In this document: positions 18,901 to 21,900 of the stretch, one piece after another
Position numbering within the stretch: position 1 is the stretch's first letter
How the letters are laid out: every line of letters begins with the position of its first letter
Source: a virus
DNA: 41,432 nt
Strand: one strand, 5' to 3'
Virus genome (UHGV): UHGV-1461890
Position numbers and translations under genes: made by a program
Notes under the pieces: generated by a model
The model's database searches: none
Told to the model about the DNA's origin: nothing
Seen by the model: only the letters and a program-made list of their open reading frames with translations

Positions 18901-21900
18901 GGATAGAACAGCTAAGGTTGAAAAGGCTCAGAAAGAGGTTCAAAAAGTTGTCTCAGGCAAGAATGGTATAGAAGGTAAGGTTCACTTTAAAGGTGATGAA
19001 CTTGCTTTAAAAGAGGTACAAAGGGAATCTTTGAAGCGAATGGGAATACTCTCGGAGGTTCTTGGTTTAAATTTCCATGTGTTTGAGTCTTATGTAGATA
19101 AAAATGGCAAACGAGTATATAAAGACACCGATGGAAAGATAAAAAAAGCTCCTAATGGCTTCTACAAAAACGGAGAGATTTACATTGACCTTAATGCCGG
19201 TAAAGATGGACAAGGCATAATGATTTACACCGTTGCTCACGAGCTTACCCATTGGATTAGAGAATGGTCTCCTGCTAAGTTTAAGGTCCTTGCCGATTTC
19301 CTGTTCGAACAGTATGGCAAAGGTAATCGTAATGTCAACAAGTTAATTGAGGACCAAATTACAAACGCCAAAAACAATGGCAGAACCATTGATTATGATA
19401 CAGCCTATGAAGAGGTTGTAGCTGACTCTATGGAGACAATGCTTTCCGATGATAATGTTCTTGAAAAAATAATGCTCTTAAAGTCTAAGGATGAAAGCAT
19501 TATCAAGAAAATCGGTGAGTTCTTTGAAAAAATCATCAATAGCTTTAAAAATCTGATGCAGAAATATCCTCCCGAAACTACCGAGGGTAAACTTGTATCA
19601 CAGATGAATGATGCTTTTGAGGAACTTCAAAGTCTCTTCGCTGAGGCCCTTGTAGATGCAAGTAACAATTATCAGGCTAATAAGGGACAAAAAAACACCA
19701 CCTCTGAGGGTGATGTGAAGTTACAAGCAAGAGAACTACAACGAAAAGACCCTACCACACTCAAAGAGGACGAGCTTACAACCTTGCTTGAGTATACAAA
19801 AGATAAAGTTTTGTCAGATGATACATATATTCCTGTGAGAATAAATACTCCTCAAATCCTTATTGCTTTTGCTAAAGAATTTGGGTATACATTAGAAAAT
19901 CATCCTCTTGCTATGCAAGTATATAAGGCAAGACAAGCTCTTTCAAATGAGGAAAATTGGGATGGAGATTATCAAGATAAGCCTCACGATTTGTCACCTG
20001 AAGAAGTGATAGGTATTATTCGAGCTATGAATAATCCTTCACACCTTGTTTTTCAAACCGAAAATGAGCGCTTTGCTGAGATTGTAAAGTTCGAAAAAGA
20101 AGGTAGCAAAGAAAAAGCGTATGCTATAGTAGATTTTTCAGATGTAAATAAAAACCCTGACCTTATGAATGGATACAAAGGTGGTAAATACAATATTTTA
20201 GTCACAGTTTATCCTTCAGAGGATGCTGCCGACCTGAAAAGATATTTATCAAACAAAAACCATAAGGTGCTAACAGGTGAACAAATGAAAAAGAAAGGTC
20301 TATCGCAAGGAAGCTACGGCGGCAACACGCCCTCGCTATTAAACGATTCACCTTTCTTCGAGGATAGTATACCACAAACTTCCAAAAAAAGTCAAGAAAA
20401 ACTGTCTGGTAGAGAAAACTTTATTGGCGAAAGAAACCTCGAAGACTTTGCAGAGGCTAAGGATACTGAAGGTAAAACCTTGTTCCAATATCGTGCGATG
20501 GAGTCTGACGAAGATGTTTATCGAGAAATGCTTAAAACTGCAAATATAATGAGTGATTCAGAGATAAATGCTTTGTTTGACACCGTTGATAGAGCAATGG
20601 ATATTATTAAGGATAATCTTGAAATCCTTGACTATGCTTGGGAAACCGACATTGACGATAGAGCGTTTAATCCTGTGAAGAAAAATACTGATAAGTTATA
20701 TCAGGTAAGCGTAGACTTTTCTACTTTGTGCAGAAAGAGACTTTTGCAGCAGGCTATTCAGGCTCATTTGCAAGAGGCGCTTAACAGACCACTTACAAAA
20801 AATGAAGGAATTGCTATAAGAGATGCTCTTATGACCATTCAGGAAGAAGGCAAACAAATTGAGATAGCATGTGCGCTTTGCTATGTTGAGTCTGCAAGAA
20901 TGAAATCCCCGGCACAGATAAAAAGGTTTATTGATGGTAGAGAAACTGTTATTAAAAATTATTTTGCAGGAAAGTCGGCTGAGGTAAAGGCTCAACTTAA
21001 AGAAGCTGAGGCAAAAGCAAGAGAAAGACTTGGTGTCTATGATACTCCTCTTACTAAACTTCCAAGTAAGGCTCAAAAAGACATCCGAGGCGCAAAAAAG
21101 GATGTAATATCTTCCTATGTTCCTTCTGCTAAAGAGCAAGAACTTATTGAAATTGCAAAAGGAATGTCGGTTAATGATTTTGTTACTCCAAAGGGTCTTG
21201 AAACTCTTATAAAAAAATATCCTGATTTATTTGATGCGTATGCAAGTTTCATAGTAAATGCTACTCATTCAAAGGGCATTGAAAACGATACTTGGTGGAG
21301 AGCAGGAGACTCTAAAAATATTGGAGATACTTTGATTGCGAATATGAATGCCGAGAATGGCCTTCGCTCACAGTCATGGTCTGACTTCCAAGTTATCCAC
21401 CTACTTGACTATATGGCTGCAACCATTGAGCTTTCCACAAGAAAAGCCAAGATGCAAACGTATACCAAGGTGCCTGACTTTGTAGAACTTATGGGTAGCA
21501 CAGGTGAAATGATTAACCTATCTTTAATTCCTACAAGGAATTTTAATGGTACTCTTGATTTTGATGGTATTGAAGGTATGGAATTTGAAGAGTCTTTGAG
21601 GCTTCGTGACAAATACCATGCTACAGCAGGTACTATTGCTATAGGTGTAGATAATGTTCAAATACAAATGCTCCTTGATAGTATGAATATTGACTACGTT
21701 ATTCCTTATCATAGGTCAGGTATGGCAAAAGCAGTTCGTAAGGCGATGCATATACCTACTTGGACAGAGTATGAAAATTATCAAAGTGAGAAAAACCTCT
21801 CAAGAGATGCTGCGAGGGAACAGGCTAAAAAGTATGGTGTAAAACTGCTCTCAGAAAGCGATTCTAACTATCAAAAACATCCTAACTTCTCTGATTGGTT

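Follow-up and report, generated by a model that had tools for sequence, protein, structure and literature searches.

A conserved, uncatalogued domain in giant phage virion proteins and its possible kinship with radical SAM enzymes

We found that UHGV virus genome UHGV-1461890, a stretch of 41,432 nucleotides (nt) that was analysed whole and is called the window below, carries in the middle of a giant protein of 3,782 amino acids (aa) a domain that matches no sequence family in the libraries searched and whose closest counterparts in fold comparison are the radical S-adenosylmethionine (SAM) enzymes. This domain, termed X here, spans aa ~1505-2110 (nt 20429-22246), and its alignments indicate that it is a real domain under strong constraint. 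At a rough probability of 0.45, we consider it possible that domain X is a highly divergent radical-SAM-like iron-sulphur (Fe-S) enzyme delivered together with the phage DNA. The fuller proposal, that a virion-packaged and host-injected radical SAM-type enzyme with a split C-x41-46-C-x2-C motif supplies the giant ejection proteins of uncultured phages from gut and other anaerobes with their invariant catalytic core, is slightly more tentative. The family comprises at least 150 verified clusters at 50% identity and possibly more than 1,000.

Extent and conservation of domain X

A first-pass annotation, made from the letters of the window, had flagged positions 20690-21750 as a module of about 350 residues with the look of a globular enzyme and had singled out a CxxCYVE and a YHRSG motif. 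The peptides that it quoted are the exact translation of this interval in the + frame, and all of them lie inside the giant open reading frame (ORF), whose limits were taken from the ORF list and its translation. CxxCYVE is CALCYVE (aa 1652-1658), with its cysteines correctly numbered C1652 and C1655, and YHRSG (aa 1931-1935, nt 21707-21721) forms the end of DYVIPYHRSG (aa 1926-1935). The flagged stretch is thus placed inside a real domain, the size of which had been underestimated, as the conserved region extends over ~600 aa.

Next, we investigated conservation in an alignment of 116 sequences, including the distant L008, P0008 and P0275, in which identity falls to 28%. C1605, C1652 and C1655 are present in each of the 115 sequences that cover them and C2041 in 116 of 116, and within CALCYVE the Y is found in 115/115 sequences and the E in 114. 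Also invariant in all 116 are R1608, G1815, R1817, S1820, S1822, D1823, D1831, Y1849, K1851, N1867 and S1869, as well as G1905, P1930, Y1931, H1932, S1934, F2050, Y2063, K2065, D2069 and F2090. Conservation of an HRS motif had been proposed; the H and the S hold throughout, the R between them is variable, and the motif is therefore PYHxSG. Across relatives, the flagged residues are invariant in a very large family, and the flagged features are far beyond chance. With these residues conserved and no purely structural fold matched, the interpretation of the first-pass annotation is supported and sharpened.

Two readings were rejected upon closer examination. P0275 seems at first sight to lack the Cys triad, but its contig shows a split gene of which the upstream ORF carries C-x44-C-x2-C. 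In this distant relative (L012 2-3426) the split falls within domain X, the upstream ORF holding the zincin region with the Cys triad and the downstream ORF, P0275 itself, holding the rest of X and MuF_C; the split is either an assembly error or real. An antisense ORF of 147 aa inside domain X (20696-21139, minus strand) is a by-product, because one to four stop codons interrupt the homologous place in L001, L002, L003 and L007, and the sense frame is open.

Searches of Pfam, NCBIfam, PHROGs and PADLOC with the whole ORF and with the domain returned nothing for X, and PDB sequences gave no family match either, in agreement with the earlier failure to assign the module. The LPD families catalogued for polyvalent proteins are, as far as is known, included in Pfam, and none of them was found in Pfam-A with the whole ORF (E<=1) or with 27 domains (E<=10).

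Predicted fold and the readings it allows

We modelled domain X with AlphaFold2, using no templates and a trimmed alignment of 27 sequences. The resulting model is a compact and confident alpha/beta fold (predicted local distance difference test, pLDDT, 91.2; predicted template modelling score, pTM, 0.87), which bears out the globular, enzyme-like look, and consists of six parallel-type beta/alpha units in series. It starts with a small N-terminal hairpin, beta1 (model residues 22-24), C30 and two helices (31-68), continues with C77-x2-C80 immediately before alpha1 and ~130 residues of partly variable helices, adds the five later beta/alpha units at residues 241-242, 270-275, 290-297, 329-335 and 352-355, and ends with a long helical extension that carries C466, followed by conserved hairpins. 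The spacing between the first and second cysteines is 41-46 residues in the four sequences counted by eye (46 here; 41-44 in L008, P0008 and L012). Confidence is lowest in the two Cys loops and in the S-W-S-D loop that follows beta2; the G-L-R-S-Q-S-W-S-D loop has the lowest pLDDT of the model (69), which would fit a loop that depends on a ligand. An earlier shallow-alignment model (pLDDT 69, with a poor core), which was not used for the fold search, also shows the four beta/alpha units that come after beta2.

When domain X was compared with known folds, radical SAM enzymes were the closest, with glycoside hydrolase barrels scoring well below them, and the model contains the partial (beta/alpha)6 core, resembling a triosephosphate isomerase (TIM) barrel, that defines the radical SAM superfamily. 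In the model's order of secondary structure, the first cysteine lies a few residues after beta1 and the Cx2C adjoins alpha1; the beta1-alpha1 loop is the canonical place of the radical SAM cluster loop. Candidate radical SAM motifs could be matched by strand order only, namely N-x-S on beta4, G-T-I-A-I-G on beta5 and P-Y-H-x-S-G after beta6. On the model, I-N-L-S-L-I-P would occupy the position of the radical SAM 'ribose motif', G-T-I-A-I-G seems to resemble the GxIxGxxE motif, and the G-L-R-S-Q-S-W-S-D loop may stand in place of the 'GGE' loop. A six-unit partial barrel combined with a Cys triad, polar residues on beta4 and the beta5 motif is what a very divergent radical SAM enzyme whose cluster motif is interrupted by a helical insertion would be expected to look like. 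Additionally, the identifiable sources of the family, all of them gut or anaerobe-associated, together with the lack of a match in cultured phages or plasmids, fit an oxygen-sensitive cofactor.

Under the radical SAM reading, domain X would be an autonomous enzyme and the constant catalytic core of giant virion proteins that are ejected with the DNA, within a layout of N-terminal region, HExxH zincin, X, optional ADP-ribosyltransferase (ART) or MuF_C, and conserved C-terminal region. It would be an extremely divergent member, or a derivative, of the radical SAM structural class with a six-unit (beta/alpha)6 partial barrel, in which C1605-x46-C1652-x2-C1655 would bracket the beta1-alpha1 loop, split by the two-helix insertion, and bind a [4Fe-4S] cluster. 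This cluster would cleave S-adenosylmethionine of the host reductively to yield a 5'-deoxyadenosyl radical, with flavodoxin or ferredoxin of the anaerobic host, and the radical would react with a substrate bound by the many invariant residues, polar and basic, that lie at the strand ends and in both terminal extensions. H-atom donors or a radical relay may be provided by C2041 together with the invariant Tyr residues. We infer that the most likely substrate class is nucleic acid or nucleotide, a leaning prompted by the many invariant Arg and Lys residues, the delivery of DNA and the occasional RNase-like MuF_C neighbour.

Several observations weigh against a radical SAM enzyme. The canonical CX3CX2C is absent, no aromatic residue precedes the third cysteine, GGE is absent with S-W-S-D in its place, and the invariant polar residues are denser than is usual for radical SAM cores. 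The fourth invariant cysteine could complete a four-Cys Fe-S or Zn site, which would leave no free iron for SAM. A Pfam-A scan of the 27 members of alignment A4 at E<=10 found no family, PF04055 (Radical_SAM) included, and PDB sequences gave nothing with the 27-sequence domain profile at E<=10 and chance-level matches only with the single sequence. Furthermore, hhalign of the X profile against the pyruvate formate-lyase (PFL) activase family gave a probability below 1%, with a score of 18.4 that lies inside the null of block-shuffled templates (mean 20.1, standard deviation 4.5; 28/60 shuffles reaching or exceeding it). We also found no precedent in the literature for an oxygen-labile cluster packaged in a virion.

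Part of this evidence has limits of its own. The PFL-activase template is narrow, its homologues being at least 72% identical to E. coli PflA, so that this negative is weak. QueE (CX14CX2C) and HmdB (CX5CX2C; PMC4389238) show that the cluster motif can be lengthened with its terminal Cx2C intact, and Gly is missing at both of the first two GGE positions in 22 of 48 solved radical SAM enzymes (PMC10267522); its absence in X is therefore not disqualifying. A permissive hhalign alignment that paired SWSD with GGE and IPYH with LPYH was rejected as evidence, its score falling within the shuffled null, and only the P-Y-H tripeptide coincides between X and the glycyl-radical-enzyme activases of the PFL-AE/NrdG type.

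The serious rival, which we rate as unlikely, is a metal-dependent enzyme without radical chemistry (hydrolase, transferase or lyase), built on a TIM-like partial barrel with a four-Cys Fe-S or Zn site. Here, the four cysteines would bind structural Zn or a [4Fe-4S] cluster with four Cys ligands and in this way fasten both the helical insertion and the C-terminal extension onto the barrel, and catalysis would proceed through D1823, D1831, K1851, N1867, H1932, S1934 and D2069 on nucleic acid or another host polymer. This explanation accounts for invariant cysteines numbering four and not three, for the abundance of invariant polar residues at the ends of strands, a feature of TIM-barrel active sites, and for the finding of no sequence similarity to radical SAM enzymes. 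It is also favoured by the weak Foldseek matches in the PDB to assorted TIM barrels. Nothing in that comparison was significant, and the radical SAM enzyme SkfB was among the weak matches too. Foldseek against viral models (BFVD) retrieved one true relative, an uncharacterised segment from an uncultured phage with 21% identity (E = 2e-18), and nothing annotated.

The other three rivals are less likely. An improbable one is that X is a virion-associated cell-wall-degrading enzyme, a glycoside-hydrolase-like barrel that opens the thick Gram-positive wall at ejection. It was raised because no virion-associated peptidoglycan hydrolase was detected by Pfam in the scanned structural genes (10264-15901 and 27317-30692, with ORF 10264-10680 excluded) or in the giant ORF, and a phage of a Gram-positive host without one is unusual. 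However, the barrel has six units and not eight, and no glycoside hydrolase family appears in Pfam even at E<=10; X does not fit the glycoside-hydrolase TIM barrels (e.g. GH5, GH18), which are marked by eight strands, catalytic carboxylates and a family profile match. Besides the low fold scores of glycoside hydrolase barrels, the Cys triad and the fourth Cys would be unexplained for an enzyme acting outside the cytoplasm, and the solo homologue described below is coded among small ORFs and not among tail genes.

A little less probable again is a non-catalytic X, serving as a folded structural or assembly module of the ejection apparatus with a metal site for rigidity. The protein that houses it most likely has structural roles too, given its Gly-rich hydrophobic N-terminal segments and large conserved C-terminal region, but more than 20 invariant polar or charged residues at strand ends, at identities down to 28%, form an active-site-like pattern, the fold class is enzymatic, and a solo version exists outside giant proteins. 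Finally, a counterpart of the N4 virion RNA polymerase, that is, a new-type polymerase or primase starting phage gene expression or replication, is very improbable: X sits at a similar place in a giant ejected polypeptide which, like the ~3,500-aa N4 gp50, combines a central enzyme with an HExxH domain (PMC13434306, PMC5512222), yet X lacks the hallmarks of a T7-like single-subunit RNA polymerase, and the N4-like polymerase, primase and glycoside hydrolase readings have no motif, family or fold support.

Family, layout and phage setting

A word-indexed protein search yielded nine fragmentary relatives, and two with a distant query, and evidently misses giant proteins. We therefore report family size from an exhaustive HMMER search with a profile from the nine relatives, over clusters at 50% identity, which gave 4,053 clusters at E<=1e-3 and 1,673 at E<=1e-30; these totals are upper bounds for X, because the profile also took in the zincin region. 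The best 150 clusters are mostly 2,000-4,800 aa long, and a hidden Markov model of the domain only matches all 150 of them, with E ~1e-250 and below among the matches listed.

Upon tracing the origin of the relatives, all ten that were looked up proved to be metagenome assemblies on contigs of 18-45 kb. The giant protein is also present on a 31-kb metagenomic contig, and six IMG/VR contigs carry X. Among 185,579 GTDB species representatives, two have the domain, a Clostridia bin and a Desulfarculales genome (28% identity). No match was obtained by tblastn in GenBank phages, either with X or with its most conserved 189 aa, or in PLSDB plasmids with X, and the domain was not encountered in any cultured phage, plasmid or solved structure. 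All sources that could be identified are gut or anaerobe-associated, namely a human faecal fragment, the Clostridia bin, Firmicutes and Desulfovibrio metagenome-assembled genomes, and the Desulfarculales genome.

A BLAST coverage map of the giant protein against its family revealed three shared blocks, at aa ~950-1250 (zincin), ~1505-2110 (X) and ~2800-3650 (C-terminal), with idiosyncratic stretches between them. The zincin region occurs in ~105/154 homologues on this map and in 109 of the 127 relatives of at least 2,500 aa that entered our layout census. In this census the commonest layout is zincin, X and C-terminal region (63/127), with ART in 30/127 and MuF_C in 8/127, and a C-terminal seed (aa 2951-3600) recovers 99 of the 127. 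These layouts indicate that X is a constant part of the backbone of giant virion proteins and not an exchangeable effector; since it belongs to this backbone, its role is probably required for infection by the lineage and is not an optional counter-defence.

Two relatives depart from the giant format. P0008 (L011 564-2225) is a solo X of 553 aa, without the variable helical insertion and with an Arg-rich N-terminal extension, coded among small same-strand ORFs on a 5.5-kb contig; its existence argues that X is an independent unit. On a 61-kb bacterial contig we found a frameshifted copy of ~1,330 aa (L010 10001-13964) that holds the zincin region, X and an unassigned tail, flanked by genes of housekeeping type for NUDIX, CN_hydrolase, aromatic lyase, PTS EIIC, ribosomal S21 and thymidine kinase. 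No phage-type Pfam family was present in any called gene of the 22-kb stretch examined, and the copy is a remnant or a domesticated copy.

The features of domain X, of the rest of the giant ORF and of further phage genes are collected in Table 1.

Table 1. Coordinates in the window of the giant ORF, its parts and genes cited in the text
Feature	Position (nt)	Strand	Remark
Giant ORF	15917..27265	+	putative polyvalent internal or ejected virion protein; contains domain X
HELTH (HExxH) motif, aa 1108-1112	19238..19252	+	in zincin-like metallopeptidase region (aa ~1000-1250), ahead of X in most family members
Helical lead-in (LFQYRA, YREML, LDYAWExDI)	20429..20641	+	conserved in alignments and coverage map; of low confidence in the earlier shallow-alignment model
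Domain X as modelled, aa 1576-2100	20642..22216	+	six beta/alpha units, helical insertion, C-terminal extension
Beta1 and first invariant Cys (YQVSVDFSTLC1605RKR)	20699..20740	+	strand at model residues 22-24, then C30
Two-helix insertion between first and second Cys, 46 residues here	20732..20869	+	helices at model residues 31-47 and 53-68
C1652-A-L-C1655-Y-V-E, second and third invariant Cys	20870..20890	+	directly before alpha1; helix from model residue 81
Variable, mostly helical insertion	20939..21256	+	weakly conserved; helices at model residues ~100-208; much shorter in solo homologue P0008
H-S-K-G-I-E-N-D motif	21266..21289	+	K1786 nearly invariant
G-L-R-S-Q-S-W-S-D loop after beta2	21359..21385	+	G1815, R1817, S1820, S1822, D1823 invariant
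Y-T-K-V-P-D, end of beta3	21461..21478	+	Y1849, K1851 invariant
I-N-L-S-L-I-P on beta4	21512..21532	+	N1867, S1869 invariant
G-T-I-A-I-G on beta5	21629..21646	+	G1905 invariant; I1909, G1910 nearly so
D-Y-V-I-P-Y-H-R-S-G, beta6 and loop	21692..21721	+	P1930, Y1931, H1932, S1934 invariant
Y-L-R-L-C2041-A-E-R, fourth invariant Cys	22025..22048	+	ends long C-terminal helix (model residues 439-468)
Y-W-K-L-L-I-D-R-K-M ... K-P-I-F-D, conserved C-terminal beta-hairpin region	22103..22189	+	Y2063, K2065, D2069, F2090 in 116/116
ART-PolyVal ADP-ribosyltransferase domain	22478..22978	+	PF18760; optional accessory module downstream of X
Conserved C-terminal region, aa 2520-3594	23474..26698	+	PHROG 22978 (function unknown), E = 1.2e-184, profile length 3,513
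Serine recombinase (large)	32111..33607	-	
YqaJ exonuclease/RecT pair	36561..38353	+	
C5 cytosine DNA methylase	39486..40199	+	

Within the giant ORF, ART-PolyVal is the only Pfam domain (aa 2188-2354, E = 1.8e-21). The zincin-like region has no Pfam peptidase match in the window protein, and one relative shows a weak match to Peptidase_M78. The protein contains 13 cysteines, none of them in the first 1,604 residues (15917-20728), and four of the 13 are the invariant ones of X. The C-terminal region has no meaningful relative among PDB sequences (best E = 0.07, V-type ATPase subunit G), and aa 2800-3650 have a sole match among GenBank phages, a 4.8-kb fragment from human faeces (MT838833). As a side observation, the C-terminal region recalls the orphan C2 domain of N4 gp50 (PMC13434306). 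Additionally, aa ~430-640 (~17200-17840) form a long hydrophobic region rich in Gly, Ala, Ser and Leu, e.g. GAVGLGAKAAGTLGKVAGAATLGSSAAG, which looks like the membrane-inserting or tape-measure-like segments seen in ejection proteins. Only ~7/154 relatives share the stretch that separates the zincin region from X (aa ~1250-1500, ~19670-20430), which may be a lineage-specific inserted module, and aa 1240-1309 match a PADLOC type II restriction enzyme model weakly (E = 0.006).

The window, at ~41 kb and ~38% G+C, represents a temperate phage or prophage. The genes 5' of the giant ORF code for the large terminase, a P22-like portal, a capsid protein and a DUF859 protein (Pfam), and those 3' of it for a fibre-like protein with BppU_N and collagen repeats, a CBM5/12 protein and an amidase-SPOR endolysin; in L001, ORF sizes follow the same order as in the window. 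The giant ORF occupies the place where P22- and T7-type phages code internal or ejection proteins. Farther 3' lie the serine recombinase, the YqaJ/RecT pair and the C5 DNA methylase, from which it follows that the phage is temperate, with its own recombination and DNA-modification genes. From the position of the gene and by the logic of polyvalent proteins, we infer that the particle carries these giant proteins and ejects them into the host along with the DNA.

Significance and comparison with known systems

Domain X is the most conserved part of a giant virion protein family whose sequence clusters number in the hundreds to thousands, all members coming from metagenomes. It probably plays a central part in the infection process of a whole group of phages of gut and other anaerobes. 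If X is of the radical SAM type, the range of phage-injected proteins would extend to oxygen-sensitive radical chemistry, and X would be the first example of radical chemistry that a phage particle brings in at infection; our literature search turned up no virion-delivered radical SAM enzyme. The superfamily itself would be enlarged by a branch that has a long helical insertion within the cluster motif and escapes current sequence models, and there would be a concrete reason for the resistance of these phages to standard cultivation. If it is not of this type, X would be a new enzyme fold variant with well-defined candidate catalytic residues.

Among known enzymes, the best structural neighbours of the modelled X are the minimal radical SAM enzymes, namely QueE (5tgs), spore photoproduct lyase (4fhc), PFL-activating enzyme (3c8f) and viperin (5vsl). 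In contrast to these, X has no detectable sequence or profile similarity to the class, carries a helical insertion of 41-46 residues between the first and second cysteines where theirs have three residues, lacks GGE, has about 160 residues of additional helices separating alpha1 from beta2, possesses a fourth invariant Cys as well as conserved extensions at both termini, and forms part of a 3,782-aa virion protein. In Burkholderia multivorans QueE (CX14CX2C), the cluster motif is likewise interrupted yet the terminal Cx2C and the canonical cluster site are retained (PMC4389238), which makes it a precedent. Its insertion is an extended loop of 14 residues, whereas that of X comprises 41-46 residues and two helices, and QueE is recognisable as a radical SAM enzyme by sequence, unlike X.

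Coliphage N4 gp50 is an ejected protein of ~3,500 residues in which an enzymatic module occupies the centre, accompanied by an HExxH domain and by a large helical domain at the C-terminus without structural relatives (PMC13434306). Its centre is a T7-like RNA polymerase followed by HExxH, whereas in the window protein HExxH comes ahead of a barrel-type X without polymerase features.

Polyvalent proteins occur in phages and conjugative elements, and their injection along with the DNA is predicted (Iyer et al. 2017, PMC5512222); the main text of that study contains none of the terms radical SAM, Fe-S, cysteine or TIM barrel. Like the window protein, they are giant, multidomain and coded among virion genes, and they share with it HExxH and ART-PolyVal, and MuF_C with its relatives. 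In the window, unrelated activities are likewise joined in one polypeptide (the HExxH region, X and ART-PolyVal, with MuF_C in relatives), coded among virion and packaging genes. The polyvalent giant virion protein is thus a known kind and X is uncatalogued in the libraries searched; X has no match among the Pfam domain families and differs from the interchangeable effectors of polyvalent proteins in being, as its distribution suggests, a constant core.

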